This document shows positions 1 through 8,803 of a stretch of DNA of 8,915 nt, in pieces. The stretch lies in IMG/VR virus record IMGVR_UViG_2778261203_000002. The stretch is one strand, 5' to 3'. The stretch comes from a virus (Duplodnaviria; Heunggongvirae; Uroviricota; Caudoviricetes). A program made the translations under genes and the position numbers. Within the stretch, counting starts at the first letter, position 1; each line of letters begins with the position of its first letter. The notes below the pieces were generated by a model that was given only the letters and a program-made list of their open reading frames with translations, was not told the DNA's origin and made no database searches.

Positions 1-575
1 CCATTCGTGGGACAGTATCCCTGACAGCCTACAAAACGCAATTGAAGAACGCGAGGCATCGTCTTAACGAGGCACCGAGGCGTCGCATTCTTCAGATGGT
101 TCAACCCTTAAGTTAGCGCTTATGGGAGAAATCCCCGCAACCTCTGATGTATTATGCATCCTCAACGCAGCCACAGTTAACCTGATTGGCGGGTTTACTT
201 CATCTGTAAATATTTTTATAAAAATAATGCCCACGCACAGCATAAAACAAAAAGTATTACAGATAAAAAAGGAACGTAATGTACAGATTTGTTGTTTTCC
301 ATATTTACTCACCTTAATATGATTAACCCTGATAGGGCTGTTATTTCAGCGGTTTTCAAATGAGATATTATGGTGATCTGACAAATTTGCATAACATTAA
401 AATTTAATTTGTTTAACCGCTTTTAATAATAAGCGTTGTTTGTATCCCAGCAATCTGTTGTTTGGTTTTTATTCCATTAAGGTGGGGGCTTTACACTGGA
501 ACCAGTTTATTTATACTTTATACGTCAGCCTGAACAACTGGCATCTGCTGCACTGCGCCATCGAGAGATTGAGAA

Positions 576-1175
576 ATGGCGCATATACAACTGGTCAAAC
601 AAACTTCTTCTGGTTTACTTCTCCCGGCGACGCCGGAGAGTTGCGATTTTCTGCATCAAATCAAAATAGGTGAGTGGATACACGCAGACTTTAAGCGTGT
701 GCGTAACTACGCATTCCACAAGCGTTTTTTCAAACTCCTGCAACTGGGATTCGATTACTGGACTCCGGTCGGTGGGGCGATCACGCCTCGCGAACGAGAA
801 CTGCTGTCTGGTTTCGTTGATTACCTGTGCGAATCAGTTGGTCGGGAACACACGCCAGCCCTGAGTGATGCCGCAGAGCAATACCTTAACACCGTTGCGA
901 CTCGTAGAACCCGGGATACGGCGTTGCTAAAGTCGTTTGAGGCTTTCCGCGAGTGGGTAACCATTCAGGCCGGATTTTACACCGAGCATATTTATCCGGA
1001 CGGTAGCCGTGGGCGTCGGGCAAAATCCATCGCTTTTGCGAATATGGACGAAGTCGAGTTTCAGCAGGTTTATAAATCTGTACTGAATGTGCTGTGGAAC
1101 TGGATTCTGTTCCGTAAATTCTCCTCTCAGGAGGAAGTTGAAAATGTGGCCGCACAACTACTGGAGTTTGCGTAA
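576..1175 (+). CDS. Conserved lambdoid nin-region protein (DUF1367-like, YdaW-like by position)
   Basis: 199-aa ORF with ATG at 576 and a protein-like composition. Its TAA stop (1173-1175) overlaps the ATG of the next gene (TAATG), indicating translational coupling. It sits immediately upstream of a YbcO-like gene and a Q-like gene, as in nin regions of E. coli prophages. Family name is from memory of this gene neighbourhood, not from an alignment. Confidence 0.65.
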   Translation: MAHIQLVKQTSSGLLLPATPESCDFLHQIKIGEWIHADFKRVRNYAFHKRFFKLLQLGFDYWTPVGGAITPRERELLSGFVDYLCESVGREHTPALSDAAEQYLNTVATRRTRDTALLKSFEAFREWVTIQAGFYTEHIYPDGSRGRRAKSIAFANMDEVEFQQVYKSVLNVLWNWILFRKFSSQEEVENVAAQLLEFA

Positions 1176-1465
1176 TGGTGAATTTACGTAAAGCGGCTAA
1201 AGGCCAGATGTGCCAGATCAGAATCCCTGGCTACTGCAATCACAATCCCGAAACCTCTGTGCTGGCGCATTACAGGCTGGCGGGGACGTGCGGAACAGCG
1301 ACAAAACCACACGATATGCAGGCGGCGATAGCCTGTAGCTCATGCCACGATCTAATCGACGGGCGGGTAAAAACCAGCGATTACACCAAAGAAGAATTGC
1401 GCCTGATGCATGCTGAAGGGGTTTTTCGCACACAAGAAATCTGGAGAAAGAAAGGTCATTTATGA
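1175..1465 (+). CDS. YbcO-like nin-region protein (DUF1364, putative Cys/His metal-binding nuclease)
   Basis: 96-aa ORF whose translation (MVNLRKAAKGQMCQIRIPGYCNHNPETSVLAHYRLAGTCGTATKPHDMQAAIACSSCHDLIDGR...) closely matches my recollection of E. coli DLP12 YbcO, including the conserved Cys/His spacing. Start overlaps the upstream stop (TAATG); its stop overlaps the next start (ATGA at 1462-1465). Confidence 0.75.
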   Translation: MVNLRKAAKGQMCQIRIPGYCNHNPETSVLAHYRLAGTCGTATKPHDMQAAIACSSCHDLIDGRVKTSDYTKEELRLMHAEGVFRTQEIWRKKGHL

Positions 1466-2004
1466 TTTACCCAACGAATACAGGAAAAAGCGGAGAACAC
1501 CTTCGCCTCACCACGCTGGAAAGTGTCTGGATTCAGGGAAAACTACGTATGTGGGGGCGCTGGTCGTATATTGGCGGTGGCAGGTCAGGGAATATGTTCA
1601 ATCAGTTGTTGGCATCCAAAAAACTGACGAAAACAGCCATTAATGAAGCCCTGCGCAGAATGAAAAAAGCGGGAATAGAGAAAGCTGAGCTGGAAGCGTT
1701 TTTGCGAGAGATGATCAACGGCAAGCAAAAGAGCTGGCTGGCGCATTGTACTGATGCAGAGGCGTTATGTATTGATCGAGTCATAAGTGAGGTGCTGGCA
1801 GAGCATCCAGGATTGATTTGCATTCTCCGGCAACGCTATGAAGGGCGGGGGATGACTAAGCGCAAAATGGCTGAATTGCTAAATGATGCACACCCAGAGT
1901 GGTGTTTTAGCACATGCGAAAAACGGATTGCTAATTGGTTAGCTGTTGCTGAGTATGCCCTATATATTCCCATGCGTGAATCATTTGCTGAGAAAATGGC
2001 TTGA
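1462..2004 (+). CDS. Putative late-gene antiterminator (Q-like)
   Basis: 180-aa ORF, translationally coupled to the upstream gene, occupying the canonical Q position: last gene of the nin module, followed within about 80 bp by a strong intrinsic terminator and then the lysis cassette. It contains Cys pairs (C-x7-C, C-x3-C) compatible with a zinc-binding motif. The Q assignment is by position and general features only; I do not recognise it as lambda Q or phage 82 Q. Confidence 0.55.
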   Translation: MIYPTNTGKSGEHLRLTTLESVWIQGKLRMWGRWSYIGGGRSGNMFNQLLASKKLTKTAINEALRRMKKAGIEKAELEAFLREMINGKQKSWLAHCTDAEALCIDRVISEVLAEHPGLICILRQRYEGRGMTKRKMAELLNDAHPEWCFSTCEKRIANWLAVAEYALYIPMRESFAEKMA

Positions 2005-2084
2005 TTTCTTACGTATAAACTGCTTCAATTTTGCTATGCTTCGCAAAGCTGTATCGCGAGGCGGATTGCAGACATGGACATCGT

Positions 2085-2111
2085 AAAAAAACCGCTTAAT
2101 GCGGTTTTTTT
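2085..2111 (+). terminator. Rho-independent terminator (A-run, 5-bp GC stem ACCGC/GCGGT, loop TTAAT, T-run)
   Basis: Sequence AAAAAAACCGCTTAATGCGGTTTTTTT is seen directly. The stem is flanked by an A-tract upstream and a T-tract downstream, so it could terminate in either direction. It lies just downstream of the Q-like gene, making it a candidate for the Q transcript terminator or tR'. Confidence 0.7.
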
Positions 2112-2132
2112 ACGTCAGGAAAGCAGGGGAGA

Positions 2133-2270
2133 ATGCTGCTAGTTGGGCAACTGGTCTTTCTGCTCCAAATTATAACAGAGACCAGTTATAGTTTCGGTGC
2201 TGTGTTTTTTTTACAATATTGTGATAACACATTGCTGGCGGGAGTTTTGATATTTCTTGGCAGGGGCTGA
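2133..2270 (+). CDS. Hypothetical small hydrophobic protein (45 aa), unverified
   Basis: ATG at 2133 preceded by a purine-rich AGGGGAGA; it translates to MLLVGQLVFLLQIITETSYSFGAVFFLQYCDNTLLAGVLIFLGRG, which has one or two hydrophobic stretches. It lies between two intrinsic terminators. The SD-to-start spacing is short and there is no homology support. Confidence 0.25.
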   Translation: MLLVGQLVFLLQIITETSYSFGAVFFLQYCDNTLLAGVLIFLGRG

Positions 2271-2431
2271 TGATGCGTTATCCTGATGTCGTCAACTCAT
2301 ATAAAATGAGATGAGAGATCATTGCAGGGTGGTTTGTAATTCGCTGTTTAGCGGGACAATATGTTGTCTGATACAAGACACCCGACGCCTCAGATTACTA
2401 TAATAAAGACGAAGCATCCTTTGTATTGACC

Positions 2432-2457
2432 AACCGCCTGTTTAGGCGGTTCTTTTT
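2432..2457 (+). terminator. Rho-independent terminator (7-bp stem AACCGCC/GGCGGTT, loop TGTTTA, then CTTTTTG)
   Basis: Perfect 7-bp inverted repeat followed by a T-run, seen directly. It is the second terminator downstream of the Q-like gene and is an alternative candidate for tR'. Confidence 0.65.
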
Positions 2458-2989
2458 GGGCTGGTTTATTGTATGCCAAATGATTATTAAAAAGGTTGTG
2501 TTAATAACAAAATCCGAAATAATATGCCTGCATATTTTTATCTTGCTTATATTCTGCATATTGTGCATAGCAGGCTCATCCCTGCAATCAAAACTGTATG
2601 ATGAGTATTTTTTGTTTTCCTTTTTTCCAGTCATCTGATGATGACCTGCTTCTTTTTAATCCGGATCGACATCAGTTTTTTAAGATAATTCCTGCGAGTT
2701 ATATGCATAAATACCACAAACTCCGCATTTTATGTGGTTGGGAGTTGCCGGGCGCGCAGTGAGTTTGCTAAGAAAACTCCTGCATGGTGAATCCCCCTGT
2801 GCGGTGGGGTGATACCATTAACCTTTTCTGTCGCCGACAGGTATCACGAACATTTTGTTCACCGGGAGGCACCCGGCACCATGCACTTCAATAGATTCTC
2901 TCCACATTATGGATATTCTTTCAGAATATCCCACGCAGACTTTGTGTAAATGTTAACAAATGTGCGTTTTATTTGATCTGATTCGCTGT

Positions 2990-3019
2990 TTGAGCGTCCA
3001 AAACAACGGTATATATAAT
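2990..3019 (+). promoter_or_regulatory. Putative sigma70 promoter for the lipoprotein cassette (TTGAGC, 18-bp spacer, TATAAT)
   Basis: -35-like TTGAGC at 2990-2995 and a consensus -10 TATAAT at 3014-3019, about 30 bp upstream of the ATG at 3049, which is preceded by a GAGGA Shine-Dalgarno. Pattern match only. Confidence 0.45.
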
Positions 3020-3048
3020 CCTTTACTATATGACATATGTGAGGAAAA

Positions 3049-3477
3049 ATGGGTTTTCGTAGCGCATCAATTCTTACGTTGATTATTAGTGGGATTATTA
3101 TCGGGTGCACTGATGCTGTATCGACAAATTATCATGACCGTACATCATATTACTCCGATAAAGCAATAGAGACACAGTATGTGAGTTCATCTGAACGTAC
3201 TTCTGATGTTAGTGAGGATATCCGTCTGTATGCCCATCAAATCAAGAGCGCCATCGAAAAACAGTTCGGGGATGCGAGTAAGTATTCAGGAAAAGAGTGT
3301 ACACTGAGAATGCATATGGCCCCGAATGGCCTTCTACTGGAGGTTAAAAGAGAAAGTGGAGACCTCGATTTATGTCGTGAAGCGATGAATGCGATAAAGA
3401 ATGCTGATATACCTGCCCCCCCTTCGCCGGAAGTATATAAAGTATTTCAAAATGGGGTGCTGGATTTTAAACCCTGA
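3049..3477 (+). CDS. Lipoprotein with C-terminal TolA domain III-like domain
   Basis: 142-aa ORF with a GAGGA RBS. N-terminus MGFRSASILTLIISGIIIGC has a hydrophobic core and a lipobox (IIGC, Cys20 at nt 3106-3108); Thr at +2 predicts outer-membrane sorting. The C-terminal ~85 residues (YAHQIKSAIEKQFGDASKYSGKECTLRMHMAPNGLLLEVKRESGDLDLCREAMNAIKNADIPAPPSPEVYKVFQNGVLDFKP) align along their whole length with my recollection of the E. coli TolA C-terminal domain, including the two Cys residues and the terminal LDFKP. Identity was not computed. Confidence 0.85.
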   Translation: MGFRSASILTLIISGIIIGCTDAVSTNYHDRTSYYSDKAIETQYVSSSERTSDVSEDIRLYAHQIKSAIEKQFGDASKYSGKECTLRMHMAPNGLLLEVKRESGDLDLCREAMNAIKNADIPAPPSPEVYKVFQNGVLDFKP

Positions 3478-3627
3478 TATTTATTGTTTTGTAATAAACG
3501 GTTTCGGCTTAGGTTTGTTCTGACACAGCTACGGCACTGAGCTAAATTTAGCGGATAGTCAGCTCTGAGCCAGTGGCGGACGTAACAACTACTATTGCTG
3601 AGATTTTAATGGATTGAGGAGCAAGAA

Positions 3628-4023
3628 GTGGGATTAAAGAAAATCGTTATGTTGACTTTTTGGGTCGGTTTTGTTGCGGGATGCACACCTTTACACCCTT
3701 CAGATTGCCACAAAACTACTGCTACAGGTAGTTGCAGTTCAGGACGCTGGGATGATCAGGATGAATGGGGGGCGCAAGCGCGGGGAATCAGAGCTGCAAT
3801 TAATGCCAAACTTGATGAGCCGCATAACTGGAAAGGGAAAAAATGCAGGTTGCATATGGAATTCTCTCAGGATGGCACGGCGTTAAAAATATCTACCAGT
3901 AACGGTGATAAAGCCTATTGCGAAGCGATAAAGTCCGCAGCTCATAAAGCCAAATTTCCGGCCTTCAACAATCCGGAAGTCTACAGAGATTTTCAGAAAT
4001 CTGGCTTTGACATGCGAGGTTAG
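3628..4023 (+). CDS. Lipoprotein, divergent paralogue of the upstream TolA-III-like lipoprotein
   Basis: 131-aa ORF starting at GTG 3628, with GAGGAG 6 nt upstream. Signal peptide MGLKKIVMLTFWVGFVAGC has lipobox VAGC (Cys19, nt 3682-3684) and Thr at +2. The C-terminal region (GKKCRLHMEFSQDGTALKISTSNGDKAYCEAIKSAAHKAKFPAFNNPEVYRDFQ) shares the K-x-C-x-L, D/NG, GD-x-x-x-C and PEVY-x-x-FQ pattern with the upstream paralogue and with TolA domain III. Confidence 0.8.
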   Translation: MGLKKIVMLTFWVGFVAGCTPLHPSDCHKTTATGSCSSGRWDDQDEWGAQARGIRAAINAKLDEPHNWKGKKCRLHMEFSQDGTALKISTSNGDKAYCEAIKSAAHKAKFPAFNNPEVYRDFQKSGFDMRG

Positions 4024-4148
4024 CTCTTCAATTACTATATCTCATTCATAGCAAACTGACAGATTTGATGATGTTCTATATACGAAACCTGTGATGTCAA
4101 GTCTGAGCTAATACAAATAAACATAATATCAGAGAAATACATTTTATT

Positions 4149-4172
4149 AGCTCGCTACGGCGAGCTTTTTAT
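4149..4172 (+). terminator. Rho-independent terminator (7-bp stem AGCTCGC/GCGAGCT, loop TACG, T-run)
   Basis: Perfect inverted repeat followed by TTTTTAT, about 125 bp downstream of the second lipoprotein stop and about 100 bp upstream of the holin start. Confidence 0.7.
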
Positions 4173-4274
4173 ATTGCATCGTCTCCAGCATATATATCAA
4201 TTAAGGCTCTGATTGATGTGTCTGAAAGCCTACACATAATAACTATGCCATCCGTTCCGTGCGGAGGTGAGGCT

Positions 4275-4490
4275 ATGAAATCCATGGACAAAATTTCAAC
4301 AGGCATTGCCTACGGCACCTCCGCAGGCAGTGCTGGCTACTGGTTTTTACAGTTGCTCGATAGAGTAACTCCGTCACAGTGGGCTGCAATCGGTGTGCTG
4401 GGTAGTCTGGTATTTGGCCTGCTGACGTACCTGACAAACCTTTATTTCAAGATTAAAGAAGATAAGCGCAAGGCTGCGAGAGGTGAATAA
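4275..4490 (+). CDS. Phage 21-type class II holin/antiholin (pinholin S21 family), dual-start
   Basis: Translation [71 protein letters not shown] matches phage 21 S as I recall it, with the Met1-Lys2-Ser3-Met4 dual-start motif (antiholin from ATG 4275, holin from ATG 4284). A GGAGGTGA RBS lies at 4264-4271. The track ORF from 4218 is an upstream extension with no support. The TAA stop overlaps the endolysin ATG at 4490. Confidence 0.9.
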
Positions 4491-4987
4491 TGCCTCCATC
4501 ATTACGAAAAGTCGTTGCTGCTGCTATTGGTGGCGGAGCAATTGCTATAGCATCAGTGTTAATCACTGGCCCAAGTGGTAACGATGGTCTGGAAGGTGTC
4601 AGCTACATACCATACAAAGATATTGTTGGTGTATGGACTGTATGTCACGGGCATACAGGAAAAGACATCATGCTCGGTAAAACGTATACCAAAGCAGAAT
4701 GCAAAACACTCTTGAATAAAGACCTTGCCACGGTCGCCAGACAAATTAACCCGTACATCAAAGTCGATATACCGGAAACAACGCGCGGCGCTCTTTACTC
4801 ATTCGTTTACAACGTGGGTGCTGGCAATTTCAGAACATCGACGCTTCTTCGCAAAATAAACCAGGGCGATATCAAAGGCGCATGTGATCAGCTACGTCGC
4901 TGGACATATGCTGGCGGTAAGCAATGGAAAGGTCTCATGACTCGTCGTGAGATTGAGCGTGAAATCTGTTTGTGGGGTCAGCAATGA
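4490..4987 (+). CDS. SAR endolysin (phage 21 R-type lysozyme, glycoside hydrolase family 24)
   Basis: 165-aa ORF. The N-terminal Gly/Ala-rich weakly hydrophobic segment ([20 protein letters not shown]) is typical of a signal-anchor-release domain, followed by a T4-lysozyme-like catalytic region. Near-identical to R21 from memory. Its stop overlaps the Rz start (ATGA at 4984-4987). Confidence 0.92.
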
Positions 4988-5448
4988 ACAGAGTAACCGC
5001 GATTATCTCCGCTCTGGTTATCTGCATCATCGTCTGCCTGTCATGGGCTGTTAATCATTACCGTGATAACGCCATTACCTACAAAGCCCAGCGCGACAAA
5101 AATGCCAGAGAACTGAAGCTGGCGAACGCGGCAATTACTGACATGCAGATGCGTCAGCGTGATGTTGCTGCGCTCGATGCAAAATACACGAAGGAGTTAG
5201 CTGATGCGAAAGCTGAAAATGATGCTCTGCGTGATGATGTTGCCGCTGGTCGTCGTCGGTTGCACATCAAAGCAGTCTGTCAGTCAGTGCGTGAAGCCAC
5301 CACCGCCTCCGGCGTGGATAATGCAGCCTCCTCCCGACTGGCAGACACCGCTGAACGGGATTATTTCACCCTCCGGGAACGACTGGTAATGATGCAGGCC
5401 CAACTTGAAGGTGCTCAGCAATACATAACCGAGCAGTGTTTAAAGTAA
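4984..5448 (+). CDS. Rz inner-membrane spanin (i-spanin)
   Basis: Start taken at ATG 4984 ([55 protein letters not shown]...), which matches lambda-family Rz almost residue for residue from memory: an N-terminal transmembrane helix followed by coiled-coil periplasmic domains. The track ORF from 4972 is an in-frame upstream extension. Confidence 0.9.
5204..5389 (+). CDS. Rz1 outer-membrane lipoprotein spanin (o-spanin), embedded in the +1 frame of Rz
   Basis: 61-aa ORF wholly inside Rz in another frame. It has a lipobox (VVGC) and a proline-rich mature region ([15 protein letters not shown]), matching lambda Rz1 from memory. Confidence 0.85.
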
Positions 5449-5585
5449 AATCTTAACTACAATATGATTCATTTTGATGATTGTTTCATAAGGAACAGTG
5501 AAGTAAGATCTAAGAGGAGTTAAATTTTATACAGTATAATCATAGTATTGCAGCAAGGTGGTTATAATTGAAAGAATATTTAGAT

Positions 5586-7043
5586 ATGAATACATCTCAT
5601 GTAAGAGTTGTTACTCATATGTGTGGGTTCCTGGTTTGGCTCTATAGTCTTTCAATGTTGCCACCAATGGTTGTAGCATTGTTTTATAAAGAAAAAAGCC
5701 TGTTTGTTTTCTTTATAACTTTCGTTATATTTTTTTGCATTGGTGGCGGAGCGTGGTATACAACTAAGAAATCTGGCATTCAATTACGTACCCGTGATGG
5801 GTTTATTATAATTGTAATGTTTTGGATTTTGTTTTCTGTTATTAGTGCATTCCCTTTATGGATTGACTCAGAACTTAATTTAACGTTCATTGATGCTCTG
5901 TTTGAAGGGGTTTCTGGAATAACAACAACAGGAGCAACTGTAATTGATGATGTTAGTTCATTACCTCGGGCATATTTGTACTATCGGTCACAGTTAAATT
6001 TTATAGGTGGTTTAGGAGTTATTGTTCTGGCGGTTGCTGTATTGCCATTATTGGGTATTGGTGGTGCAAAGCTTTATCAGTCAGAAATGCCGGGGCCATT
6101 TAAGGATGACAAACTCACTCCCCGCCTGGCCGATACGTCACGGACACTGTGGATAACTTATTCTTTATTAGGTATTGCTTGTATTGTCTGTTATAGACTT
6201 GCAGGAATGCCTTTGTTTGATGCTATTTGTCACGGGATTTCCACAGTTTCGCTTGGTGGTTTCTCAACTCATAGCGAGAGTATCGGATATTTTAATAACT
6301 ATTTGGTTGAGCTGGTGGCTGGTTCTTTTTCCCTGCTATCGGCTTTCAACTTCACTCTTTGGTATATTGTTATTAGCAGGAAAACGATAAAACCTTTAAT
6401 CAGAGATATTGAACTTCGTTTCTTTCTGTTAATAGCCTTAGGGGTGATCATTGTTACCTCTTTCCAGGTCTGGCATATAGGTATGTATGACTTGCATGGA
6501 AGTTTTATTCATTCGTTTTTTCTTGCCAGCTCCATGCTCACTGATAATGGTTTAGCTACGCAGGATTATGCAAGTTGGCCCACGCACACGATAGTGTTTT
6601 TGCTGTTGTCAAGTTTCTTTGGGGGATGTATAGGTTCAACTTGTGGTGGAATTAAGTCACTTCGATTTCTTATACTTTTCAAACAAAGCAAACACGAGAT
6701 AAATCAGCTTTCTCATCCCAGAGCGTTGTTGAGTGTAAATGTAGGAGGGAAGATAGTTACAGATCGTGTAATGAGGTCTGTATGGAGTTTCTTTTTTCTT
6801 TATACTCTCTTCACGGTGTTTTTTATACTGGTGTTAAATGGTATGGGATATGATTTTCTTACATCATTTGCAACAGTGGCTGCATGTATTAATAATATGG
6901 GATTAGGTTTTGGGGCTACTGCATCGTCATTCGGAGTGCTTAATGACATTGCAAAATGTTTAATGTGCATAGCTATGATTCTTGGTCGCCTTGAAATTTA
7001 TCCTGTTATTATATTGTTTTCAGGTTTTTTTTGGCGCTCCTAA
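5586..7043 (+). CDS. trkG: TrkH/TrkG-family potassium uptake membrane protein (Trk system)
   Basis: Multi-pass hydrophobic protein of about 485 aa from ATG 5586 (MNTSHVRVVTHMCGF...), with repeated Gly-rich selectivity-filter-like segments (GITTTGATV, GIGGAK, SLGGFST, GLGFGA) typical of TrkH/KtrB. The sequence and its position directly after Rz/Rz1 match E. coli trkG of the Rac prophage as I recall it. An alternative TTG start at 5568 has AGGTGG 6 nt upstream. The gene is visibly more AT-rich than the flanking phage genes. Confidence 0.9.
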   Translation: MNTSHVRVVTHMCGFLVWLYSLSMLPPMVVALFYKEKSLFVFFITFVIFFCIGGGAWYTTKKSGIQLRTRDGFIIIVMFWILFSVISAFPLWIDSELNLTFIDALFEGVSGITTTGATVIDDVSSLPRAYLYYRSQLNFIGGLGVIVLAVAVLPLLGIGGAKLYQSEMPGPFKDDKLTPRLADTSRTLWITYSLLGIACIVCYRLAGMPLFDAICHGISTVSLGGFSTHSESIGYFNNYLVELVAGSFSLLSAFNFTLWYIVISRKTIKPLIRDIELRFFLLIALGVIIVTSFQVWHIGMYDLHGSFIHSFFLASSMLTDNGLATQDYASWPTHTIVFLLLSSFFGGCIGSTCGGIKSLRFLILFKQSKHEINQLSHPRALLSVNVGGKIVTDRVMRSVWSFFFLYTLFTVFFILVLNGMGYDFLTSFATVAACINNMGLGFGATASSFGVLNDIAKCLMCIAMILGRLEIYPVIILFSGFFWRS

Positions 7044-7129
7044 TATATGGCTGATTTATAATTGTGAGTTTAATATTATGTTGACTCACTCATTGATCCA
7101 ATACCTAACTTTACCAGCAACACCTCCGT

Positions 7130-7165
7130 CCCCAGTAGCACTGGCTGCTGGGGTGCGTTTTATTC
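7130..7165 (+). terminator. Possible stem-loop/terminator between trkG and the ParB-like gene (CCCCAG, 12-nt loop, CTGGGG, then TGCGTTTTATT)
   Basis: 6-bp GC-rich inverted repeat followed by a T-containing tract, seen directly. The loop is long and the T-run is interrupted, so this is weak. Confidence 0.3.
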
Positions 7166-7180
7166 ATAAAGCAAGGCTGT

Positions 7181-7774
7181 ATGAGCGAGAAATTAAAGAT
7201 AGTCTATCGCCCATTACAAGAATTGTCACCGTATGCGCACAACGCCAGGACGCACAGTACTGAGCAGGTGGCACAACTGGTAGAAAGTATTAAGCAATTC
7301 GGCTGGACTAATCCGGTGCTGATTGACGAAAAGGGCGAAATTATTGCGGGTCACGGTCGTGTTATGGCGGCTGAAATGCTCAAAATGGATTCTGTTCCGG
7401 TCATTGTTCTGTCTGGCCTGACGGATGAGCAGAAAAAGGCGTACCGCCTGGCAGATAATCGCCTGCCGATGAATGCTGGCTGGGATGAAGATCTGTTGCG
7501 GATGGAGCTGTCGGACCTAATCAATGCTGATTTTGATGTCTCCCTGACAGGCTTCATCCCGACAGAAATTGATGAACTGTTGACGGATGTTTTGCCCGGT
7601 ATGATATTCAGATTGCTGGTTATGGGGTTGGCGATAAAAATCAGCAACGCCAGCAGGAATTACTGCGGATTGAACGTGAATATAACAATCAGCGTCTGCA
7701 ACTTGAACGTGACTATGCAGATAAATCCCGTGGGATGTCAAATCATGTTTTTCAGGAGAAAATGCAGGCTCTGA
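7181..7774 (+). CDS. ynaK: ParB-like nuclease-domain protein, probably 3'-disrupted at a deletion junction
   Basis: ATG 7181 with AAGG 4 nt upstream. The N-terminal ~140 aa look like a ParB/sulfiredoxin-type domain, including the GHGRVMAA motif (conserved Gly-x-x-Arg). From about nt 7600 the same DNA also encodes, in another frame, a tape-measure-like coiled coil, so the last ~58 codons of this ORF (LPGMIFRLLVMGLAIKISNASRNY...) are probably not native. The gene symbol is assigned by synteny with trkG in Rac, not by sequence recognition. Confidence 0.6.
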   Translation: MSEKLKIVYRPLQELSPYAHNARTHSTEQVAQLVESIKQFGWTNPVLIDEKGEIIAGHGRVMAAEMLKMDSVPVIVLSGLTDEQKKAYRLADNRLPMNAGWDEDLLRMELSDLINADFDVSLTGFIPTEIDELLTDVLPGMIFRLLVMGLAIKISNASRNYCGLNVNITISVCNLNVTMQINPVGCQIMFFRRKCRL

Positions 7775-8502
7775 ATGATGCTCTGGAACGAGAAAAAGAA
7801 ATTGTCAGACAGAAAAACGAGCAGCTCGATATTCAGGCAGGAGACTGGGTTAGTGGTGCCTCCCAGGGATTCAATAACTGGCTGGATGACACTAAGGATA
7901 TCAGTGAGCAGATAAAATCAACCACGACTCAGATGTTTGATGGAATGACCGATGCGCTGGGTGATTTTGTCACGACAGGCAAGGCAAATTTTCGTTCTTT
8001 CGCTACTTCCGTGATTTCGGATCTTAGTCGAATAGCATTAAAGGCTTCAATTACTGGGATTTTCGACAGCATTAGTAACAGTTCTTCTGGGGGGATTTTA
8101 GGAACTATCGGGAGTGCTATTAGTAAATTTATTCCGAATGCAAAGGGCGGTGTTTATGAGTCTCCGTCATTGAACACGTATTCGAACGGTATTTATGATT
8201 CCCCGCATTTTTTTGCTTTTGCAAGAGGGGCTGGTGTTTTTGGTGAGGCTGGTCCGGAAGCCATTATGCCATTAACACGAACTTCCGATGGTTCTCTTGG
8301 TGTCAGAGCTATTAATAGTAAAAGTGGTAATGGAGGCGGAGATATTACCTATGCCCCTGTATACCAAATCACTATTCAAAATGACGGCCAGAATGGAGAG
8401 ATTGGCCCTCAGGCAATAAAAGCACTTATGGGGATGGTTGATCAGCGGGTGCAGGGCGATCTGTTAAATATGCGACGTGATGGGGGAATGTTAAGTGGCT
8501 AA
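7576..8502 (+). pseudogene. Tail tape-measure protein (lambda gpH-like) C-terminal fragment, 5'-truncated
   Basis: This frame is open from 7576 with no start codon until 7735 and begins mid coiled-coil (DIQIAGYGVGDKNQQRQQELLRIEREYNNQRLQLERDYADKSRG...). It continues with a Gly/Ser-rich C-terminal region and ends directly overlapping a gpM-like gene, reproducing the lambda H-M adjacency. The upstream two-thirds of a tape-measure gene are absent. Confidence 0.65.
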
Positions 8503-8536
8503 TACGGAAGAATTTCACTGGTTACCAGAGGATGGA

Positions 8537-8803
8537 ATGAAAACAGAAAATAAACCATCAATAAAAACTGTAAGATTTGGCGATGGTTATGAGCAACGAA
8601 GTCCAAATGGACTTAATCATTCTCTGCGCGTTTTCACCTGTGATTTCAAAGTTGAGGCGAATGAACGTGATTCATTTGAAAAATTTTTAGCCCGGCATGA
8701 AGGCTATAAATCTTTTTTTTGGCGCCCGCCGGGTATTAACAGAAAAATCAGAGTGGTGTGTCGAACGTGGTCAGCGAGCCGGAGGCGTATACCCATAGTT
8801 TAA
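8537..8803 (+). CDS. Minor tail protein M-like (lambda gpM family), C-terminus possibly altered
   Basis: ATG 8537 with GAGGA upstream (a GTG at 8495 is an alternative start). MKTENKPSIKTVRFGDGYEQRSPNGLNHSLRVFTCDFKVEANERDSFEKFLARHEGYKSFFWRPPGINRKIRVVCRTWSA parallels lambda gpM from memory (VRFGDGY, FLEEHGGWKSFLWTPP, K-V-T-C-A-K-W-S). The last ~9 residues diverge at the point where a tail-fibre-like frame opens. Confidence 0.65.
   Translation: MKTENKPSIKTVRFGDGYEQRSPNGLNHSLRVFTCDFKVEANERDSFEKFLARHEGYKSFFWRPPGINRKIRVVCRTWSASRRRIPIV

Follow-up and report, generated by a model that had tools for sequence, protein, structure and literature searches.

Tandem prophage lipoproteins that display a TolA domain III without its motor: candidate decoys for Tol-dependent bacteriocins and phages

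ORF A and ORF B are two neighboring open reading frames (ORFs) on a stretch of 8,915 nucleotides, here called the window, from a Caudoviricetes virus record (IMG/VR IMGVR_UViG_2778261203_000002). Each of them encodes a small predicted lipoprotein with a complete TolA domain III (TolA-III), the domain on which group A colicins, filamentous phages, and the host protein TolB all take hold in the periplasm. Neither A nor B is a TolA. Judged by their sequences, both belong to a large, previously unstudied family of exported stand-alone TolA-III proteins, which is already present in the databases by domain name and for which no functional study was found. The best-supported mechanism is a decoy or tolerance role, in which A and B quite possibly act as nonproductive competitors of host TolA. 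From the comparisons described here, we infer an outer-membrane location, production of both proteins in the lysogen, binding of the ligands, and a tolerance phenotype.

In the proposed mechanism, A and B would be exported and held by a lipid anchor on the periplasmic side of the outer membrane. There, each would display a full TolA domain III without an inner-membrane anchor or domain II, and both therefore could not be energized by TolQ–TolR. The β3 edge of A and B would capture the N terminus of TolB, colicin N–type TolA-binding sequences, and the N1 domain of the filamentous-phage protein g3p; the β2 edge, in A alone, would capture colicin A–type ligands. A Tol-dependent bacteriocin or a filamentous phage on its way into the cell would be trapped at the outer membrane, on a domain with no capacity to pull. 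This would make the carrier cell tolerant, with its Tol–Pal function somewhat impaired, and the two-gene cassette would represent a host-protective moron on mobile elements.

Domain III, its ligand-binding edges, and the lipid tether

An ORF reading of the window confirms both genes on the plus strand, at the positions where an earlier note on this DNA had described them (Table 1). The resemblance to TolA domain III that was claimed in the same note holds far beyond chance in profile searches, in sequence matches to the Protein Data Bank (PDB), and in AlphaFold2 (AF2) models compared with Foldseek. The Pfam family of the TolA C terminus, PF06519, has a gathering cut-off of 25 bits, which is exceeded by both A (82.6 bits, E = 2.4e-23) and B (54.6 bits, E = 1.3e-14). 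Within the region of E. coli TolA in question (about residues 330–421), A covers residues 334–421 in a gapless alignment (E = 5e-28) that ends in the common C terminus LDFKP, and B covers residues 340–419 with ~30% identity (E = 5e-9). The AF2 models reach a pLDDT of ~90 over residues 51–142 of A and 40–131 of B, with values below 50 for the N-terminal parts. The model of A superimposes on the crystal structure 2x9a_B of E. coli TolA-III with a root mean square deviation of 0.6 Å over 88 residues, and that of B on 3qdp, also E. coli TolA-III, with 1.1 Å over 86 residues. The top PDB matches in Foldseek are all TolA domain III, and TonB C-terminal domains come next as weak matches. Two disulfide cysteines are invariant in the aligned A and B families and are kept in 70 of the 71 stand-alone relatives.

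Between A and B, the identity is 29% (E = 2e-18). The paralogy that had been proposed for the adjacent genes stands. A recent tandem duplication is ruled out by this identity and by the differing distributions of the two families, and the genes are better described as old paralogs.

The likeness of A and B to E. coli TolA comprises the Pfam family, the fold, the disulfide cysteines, and the C-terminal end. In A, it extends to an identity of 57 to 60% to TolA-III in the Foldseek alignments, the β3 sequence LDFKP, and most of the β2 box for colicin A. The differences concern the rest of the protein. Both A and B lack the N-terminal membrane anchor (domain I) and the long helical domain II and are uncoupled from TolQ–TolR. 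TolA is anchored in the inner membrane, whereas a lipoprotein tether to the outer membrane is predicted for A and B. Their genes reside in a prophage next to genes for a Q-like antiterminator, holin, endolysin, and Rz, outside of the ybgC-tolQRA-tolB-pal-cpoB operon that houses TolA. The NCBIfam model NF007065 (cut-off 213) scores 107.8 for A and 53.7 for B and is matched at model positions 293–386 only. TIGR02794 scores 75.6 for A against a cut-off of 59.45, yet the match is limited to positions 265–362 of this 362-position model. The RefSeq label of A (tolA, “cell envelope integrity protein TolA”) is an over-call that stems from TIGR02794, because this match is partial and the NF007065 cut-off is not reached. 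The label may mislead genome comparisons.

The lipoprotein signal peptides, with their lipobox cysteine and a Thr at position +2, are found in A and B as the earlier note had read them. As in bacterial lipoproteins, a positively charged n-region is followed in both by a hydrophobic h-region and a lipobox of the type [LVI][ASTVI][GAS]C. The N terminus of A, MGFRSASILTLIISGIIIGC followed by TDA, is composed of an n-region with R4, a hydrophobic stretch, and the lipobox IIGC. That of B, MGLKKIVMLTFWVGFVAGC followed by TPL, has K4 and K5 in the n-region, a hydrophobic stretch, and the lipobox VAGC. The start of B is annotated in RefSeq at ATG 3649, which leaves the lipobox intact and loses the Lys-Lys n-region; GTG 3628, preceded by the Shine–Dalgarno-like sequence GAGGAG, is preferred here. 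A GAGG ribosome-binding site is located 4 nt upstream of the ATG of A. All of 15 aligned family members and all of 121 aligned B-family sequences have the lipobox cysteine. In the latter, the +2 residue is Ala (105 sequences), Thr (7), Ser (7), Gly (1), or Val (1), and never Asp. According to the +2 sorting rule, lipoproteins without Asp at this position are directed to the outer membrane, and A and B are therefore predicted to reside at its inner face. The signal peptide is connected to the domain by a linker of ~25 to 35 residues with low AF2 confidence, which in A (residues 21–54) is probably disordered.

The edges by which TolA-III binds its ligands are known at residue level. The N1 domain of g3p, colicin N, and TolB all dock on the β3 edge (TolA A415–K420) by strand addition, which relies on hydrogen bonds of the backbone at D418 and K420; binding is abolished by either D418P or K420P (PMC4339652). 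Colicin A pairs with β2 (L375–P380) and forms cation–π contacts with K368, K379, and K396; single TolA substitutions are tolerated for colicin A activity, triple ones are not (PMC3365938). The β3 sequence of A is GVLDFKP, with LDFK identical to TolA, and forms a strand at residues 135–140 in the AF2 model. That of B is SGFDMRG, which keeps D418 and forms a strand at residues 126–130. Neither has a proline at positions 417–420, nor does any of the 71 stand-alone relatives, 54 of which have their last residue precisely where TolA has P421. In these 71 proteins, the conservation of L417, D418, F419, and K420 equals or exceeds that in 60 long TolAs. The family has retained the features that make β3 a docking edge, and β3 is a predicted binding site. 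The β2 sequence of A, LLEVKR, points to a partly retained colicin A box, in which K379 and K396 are present and K368 is replaced by His when read from the alignment.

The position of this replacement, residue H89 of ORF A, is variable among members of the A family, which carry H, Y, or N at the equivalent of TolA K368. In TolA, K368 is the partner of Tyr58 of colicin A, a residue required for the complex to form.

Both genes are under purifying selection. The pairwise ratio of nonsynonymous to synonymous substitutions (dN/dS) of A is 0.24 in the domain and 0.50 in the signal peptide and linker, and that of B is 0.06 to 0.12 overall and 0.16 in the segment of residues 20–48. The first 29 residues of mature B, C-x-PLHPSxCHKTTAxGSCSSGRWDDQDEWG, contain two further cysteines; across 121 clusters that span several genera, their conservation is 96% (93% for the domain). 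AF2 gives no confident structure for this segment.

A TolB box was considered for the linker of B, SSGRWDDQDEWG, and was dropped as unsupported, as the likeness to the TolB boxes of colicins is loose and the linker is structureless in AF2. The core of such boxes, which we take to be D-G-[ST]-G-W, is missing from it.

Distribution on prophages, plasmids, and chromosomes

The cassette of A and B is present at ≥99% identity in 773 of 5,426 complete E. coli genomes (~14%). In IMG/VR proviruses, the identical block of A, B, and holin gene is found in at least two different lambdoid backbones and therefore behaves as a mosaic module. One backbone is of the Rac type and includes DUF1133, the lysozyme of the window, and trkG. 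The other (e.g. locus L039) includes DUF968, RusA, a Q protein of PF03589, DUF1327, a different lysozyme, HNH, and terminase.

The two families are distributed differently. The A family is narrow and prophage-restricted and occurs in E. coli and Shigella with identities of 65 to 100%. Its variants at 65 to 68% identity are single genes without B that occupy the slot between Q and holin in Qin-like prophages. The B family is broad, with a conservation of ~85% across Enterobacterales; it comprises 370 clusters, and the 120 matches listed are 78 to 99% identical. Named members among those listed come from Citrobacter, Enterobacter, Serratia, Klebsiella, Raoultella, and Shigella. The B loci of Enterobacter chromosomes are flanked in places by umuDC, resolvase, and terminase remnants. 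Homologs of B are also found on ~600 IncF-type plasmids, mostly from E. coli and Shigella, with ~88% identity. The pO157-type IncF plasmid NZ_CP038350.1 carries such a homolog (88%; locus L004, 4815–5246) downstream of psiB-psiA-hok/sok. This gene directly follows an unannotated ORF of 657 amino acids (L004, 2774–4747).

An exhaustive HMMER search retrieved 333 representative proteins at E ≤ 1e-3. Among the best 150 of these 333, 72 are short (100–190 amino acids) stand-alone TolA-III proteins; a lipobox is present in at least 43 of the 72, and several more start with an ordinary signal peptide. One member is encoded by the ColRNAI plasmid CP043367.1 of Klebsiella pneumoniae (locus L003, 3687–4420), a TolA-III lipoprotein of 124 amino acids (LLLTAC followed by K). 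Its gene overlaps that of a Sec-exported TonB_C protein (121 amino acids) and is situated beside a cloacin/immunity/lysis operon. By their sequences, the two proteins of this pair represent the tips of the two energy transducers of the envelope in exported form. The TolA-III gene of the cloacin-plasmid type is carried by hundreds of Klebsiella plasmids. A further lipoprotein TolA-III gene, on a Klebsiella MPF_I conjugative plasmid, follows a thioredoxin/DsbA-like gene. The plasmid proteins (cloacin ColRNAI, IncF including pO157, and MPF_I) resemble A and B in their lipobox, short linker, and TolA-III domain. They differ in their replicons and neighbors, and the partner of the cloacin-plasmid member is a TonB_C protein instead of a second TolA-III protein.

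The decoy reading and its rivals

The phenotype proposed for A and B has laboratory precedents. Export of the isolated domain is a known laboratory device that disturbs group A colicins, filamentous phages, and TolB alike. In the work of Levengood-Freyermuth et al. (1993) and of Wan & Baneyx (1998), periplasm-exported TolA-III is said to have caused leakiness of E. coli and tolerance to group A colicins. Constructs in which the signal of the ribose-binding protein is joined to TolAIII (e.g. pTA3Y) are described as a laboratory means to make E. coli leaky and to release periplasmic proteins. These exports resemble A and B as isolated periplasmic TolA-III domains without the motor, and the phenotype predicted for A and B is the same. 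The constructs are artificial, soluble, and overexpressed, whereas A and B are natural, by prediction lipid-anchored, diverged (B especially), borne by mobile elements, and maintained by selection. The N-terminal domains of Ff phage g3p, when placed in the periplasm, cause colicin tolerance, a block of Ff infection, and membrane defects. The same TolA-III interaction is disturbed there, with the difference that g3p occupies host TolA, while A and B would occupy the TolA-binding element of the invader or TolB.

Small outer-membrane lipoproteins that block phages, colicins, or DNA at the envelope are familiar from other mobile elements, such as Cor (phi80/N15), Llp (T5), and TraT (F). A and B are also small mobile-element lipoproteins with a predicted outer-membrane location. 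They differ from Cor, Llp, and TraT in that these mask an outer-membrane receptor (e.g. FhuA), while A and B would mimic a periplasmic energy-transducer domain; in addition, the PHROG matches reveal no sequence relationship. Nor are A and B cognate immunity proteins like those of bacteriocins.

The contexts of the family, i.e. a moron slot, F-type plasmids, and bacteriocin plasmids with an exported TonB tip, fit protective cargo. The retained β3 edge, the partly retained colicin A site of A, and the purifying selection on both genes are consistent with such a role. F pili are the receptor that attracts the TolA-dependent Ff phages, and the TonB tip is the analogous handle for group B bacteriocins. 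It is possible, if doubtful, that A and B are members of a widespread, so far unrecognized class of mobile-element cargo, termed “energy-transducer decoys,” that consists of exported TolA tips, joined on some plasmids by those of TonB, without the motor. With comparable reserve, prophages, F-type plasmids, and bacteriocin plasmids might employ such decoys to confer on the host a broad tolerance to Tol/Ton-dependent bacteriocins and to phages that depend on Tol/Ton, filamentous ones among them. They could then explain a part of the multi-colicin tolerance of natural enterobacterial isolates. Receptor-domain mimicry inside the periplasm would be suggested as a protection strategy of mobile elements that is unlike receptor masking or cognate immunity. 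The domain and the dominant-negative principle are known; a natural family of predicted lipid-anchored proteins on mobile elements, sometimes with a homolog of the TonB tip, is new. It bears on colicin- and phage-based antimicrobials, on hosts for phage display, and on the colicin tolerance of wild isolates.

Several observations count against a decoy role. TolA-III binds colicin N with a dissociation constant of ~1 µM, g3p with 12 to 15 µM, and TolB with ~40 µM (PMC4339652). Because these affinities are modest, titration would need substantial expression, and the evidence for expression in the lysogen is a consensus promoter match. Competition for TolB should bring about a costly tol phenotype. 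In B, the β2 sequence is ALKIST and all lysines of the colicin A site are lost (K368E, K379S, K396H); its conserved N-terminal segment is not explained by a passive tether, and in Enterobacter chromosomes, B stands as a single gene beside btuE. Of 50,697 phage genome records, mEp460_ev081 is the only one with the genes, which is not typical of an exclusion gene of active phages. Database comparisons bring no link to exclusion or defense either: PADLOC-DB v2 contains no defense family at E ≤ 1 for A or B, the matches in PHROG are limited to phrog_5772 and (weakly, for B) phrog_5374, both of unassigned function and neither an exclusion family, and the viral structure library BFVD yields no match at E ≤ 0.001. 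Full-text literature searches retrieved no study of these proteins.

The same structural features could serve the host envelope in another way. A tethered TolA-III might bind the N terminus of TolB and alter Tol–Pal, with tolerance as a by-product and a looser outer membrane, more vesicles, or an easier disruption of the outer membrane at lysis as outcomes. The TolB site is β3, which is retained in A and B, and exported TolAIII serves in the laboratory for the release of periplasmic proteins. The cassette follows the Q-like antiterminator and directly precedes the genes for holin, endolysin, and Rz, so late read-through would cover it. Set against this are the homologs on IncF plasmids, by btuE in Enterobacter, and on cloacin plasmids, which have no lysis genes nearby, the intactness of both genes although the prophage of the window is defective, and the deleterious nature of a chronic tol phenotype. 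We regard a modulator of Tol–Pal as unlikely. If A and B do tune Tol–Pal, they would be its first natural trans-acting regulators. An accessory role in lysis as the general function is ruled out, because homologs on plasmids and chromosomal islands are found without lysis genes nearby.

A change of partner is a further reading, which applies mainly to B. Here, the TolA/TonB-type fold would bind a partner unrelated to the ligands of TolA, for instance a different protein of the envelope or a part of the carrier element, in B together with its Cys-containing N-terminal segment. The divergence of B from TolA-III and the lost lysines of the colicin A site speak for such a module, as do the conservation of residues 20–48 across genera at the low dN/dS given above, the wide occurrence of B as a single gene on chromosomal islands and plasmids, and the thioredoxin/DsbA-like gene ahead of the Klebsiella conjugative-plasmid member. 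Yet the stand-alone proteins keep the L-D-F-K of β3 and the C terminus at 421 at least as well as true TolAs do, the identity of A to E. coli TolA-III includes both ligand edges, and no conserved neighbor gene points to an alternative partner. A neofunctionalized module is rather improbable. That the genes are inert relics or miscalled genes, i.e. captured fragments of a tolA 3′ end without present function, is very improbable. RefSeq calls A tolA, with the partial TIGR02794 match behind it, and the host prophage is defective. Opposed to this are intact ORFs to which ribosome-binding sites and canonical lipoboxes have been added, dN/dS values of 0.06 to 0.36, hundreds of sequence clusters with frequent lipoboxes among the short representatives, and the presence of the cassette in several prophage backbones. 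The simple label TolA fails on the missing anchor and domain II, on the location outside the tol-pal operon, and on the NF007065 score. Compared with these alternatives, the decoy or tolerance role of A and B is the reading we prefer.

Prophage setting and regulatory signals

The coordinates of the cassette and of its surroundings are collected in Table 1.

Table 1. Features of the window (positions in nucleotides, nt, of the 8,915-nt stretch; aa, amino acid residues)
Feature	Position	Strand	Description
ORF A	3049–3477	+	142 aa, ATG start; TolA domain III lipoprotein
ORF A parts			Signal peptide aa 1–19; Cys20 nt 3106–3108; linker aa 21–54; TolA-III aa 55–142 (nt 3211–3474)
ORF B	3628–4023	+	131 aa from GTG; TolA domain III lipoprotein
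ORF B parts			Signal peptide aa 1–18; Cys19 nt 3682–3684; conserved Cys-containing segment aa 20–48 (nt 3685–3771)
ORF B TolA domain III	3763–4020	+	~aa 46–131
Q-like late-gene antiterminator	1462–2004	+	Upstream boundary of the slot; Pfam DUF1133, E = 2.5e-107; weak Phage_antitermQ, E = 8.6e-6
STnc100-family prophage small RNA (sRNA)	2752–2938	+	Rfam RF02076, full-length, 86.6 bits versus gathering score 47
Sigma-70-like promoter candidate	2990–3019	+	TTGAGC-18 nt-TATAAT; 10/12 consensus positions; ~30 nt upstream of the ORF A start
Intrinsic-terminator-like hairpin and TTTTTAT	4149–4172	+	Downstream of ORF B; hairpin 4149–4166, 7 bp, 5 GC pairs
P21 S-type holin	4275–4490	+	First lysis gene, downstream boundary of the slot; Pfam Phage_holin_2_1, E = 2e-35
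Endolysin/lysozyme	4490–4987		Hydrophobic signal-arrest-release (SAR)-like N terminus; paired with P21-type holin
Rz gene	4972–5448		Embedded +1-frame lipoprotein ORF 5204–5389 (+), proline-rich
trkG	5568–7043	+	K+ transporter (TrkH family); GC 0.35–0.41
ParB_N ORF, tape-measure fragment, minor tail gene	7181–8803		ParB_N ORF 7181–7774; tape-measure C-terminal fragment 7735–8502; minor tail gene after

The Pfam domains of the window are arranged in the order DUF1367, YbcO nuclease, DUF1133 (Q-like), cassette, P21 holin, lysozyme, and Rz with its Rz1-like ORF, followed by TrkG, a ParB_N ORF that runs into the C-terminal fragment of a tape-measure protein, and a minor tail protein. The prophage is defective, because it lacks the genes for packaging and head and most of those for the tail. 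The region where ParB_N runs into the tape-measure fragment (7181–8803) is the scar of the deletion that removed them. Positions 5004–7434 match rzpR-rzoR-trkG-ynaK of the cryptic prophage Rac of E. coli K-12 with 99.6% identity, and the window is therefore assigned, by sequence, to a Rac-type prophage that has retained its late-regulatory and lysis region. Window positions 1–5003 have no counterpart in the Rac locus of K-12, hence the cassette is missing there.

The earlier note had placed the cassette in a moron slot with its own promoter and terminator. The position between Q and holin stands and recurs in at least two backbones, while the promoter- and terminator-like sites (2990–3019 and 4149–4166) are consensus matches only. 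The hairpin behind ORF B has a folding energy of −13 kcal/mol (z = −3.65), and none of 200 shuffled sequences folds as well. The DNA upstream of the diverged A variants is unrelated to that of the window, so the promoter-like site is without a conservation comparison. With 0.40 to 0.45, the GC content of the cassette is like that of its flanks.

The gap of 1 kb after the Q-like gene holds hairpins, a promoter-like site, and STnc100. A terminator-like hairpin with flanking A- and T-runs, identified by eye, directly follows the Q-like gene (2077–2112). Further downstream, a promoter-like site (2375–2404) is followed within ~30 nt by a terminator-like hairpin found by a scan (2432–2451), and the arrangement at 2375–2463 resembles a lambdoid pR′/tR′ short-transcript unit. 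The STnc100 match comes right upstream of the promoter-like site of the cassette and counts as context only. STnc100 has been described as a prophage sRNA that is related to PasD and common in this prophage region (2026 preprint). Upstream of the plasmid homologs, STnc100 was sought and is absent, and just sok and RNAI are found there.

Among the lysis genes, the holin is annotated as essD in SE11, and the ORF embedded in Rz has the look of an o-spanin of the Rz1 type (rzoR in K-12). Between Rz and the ParB-like gene, the low-GC trkG forms a piece of cargo.

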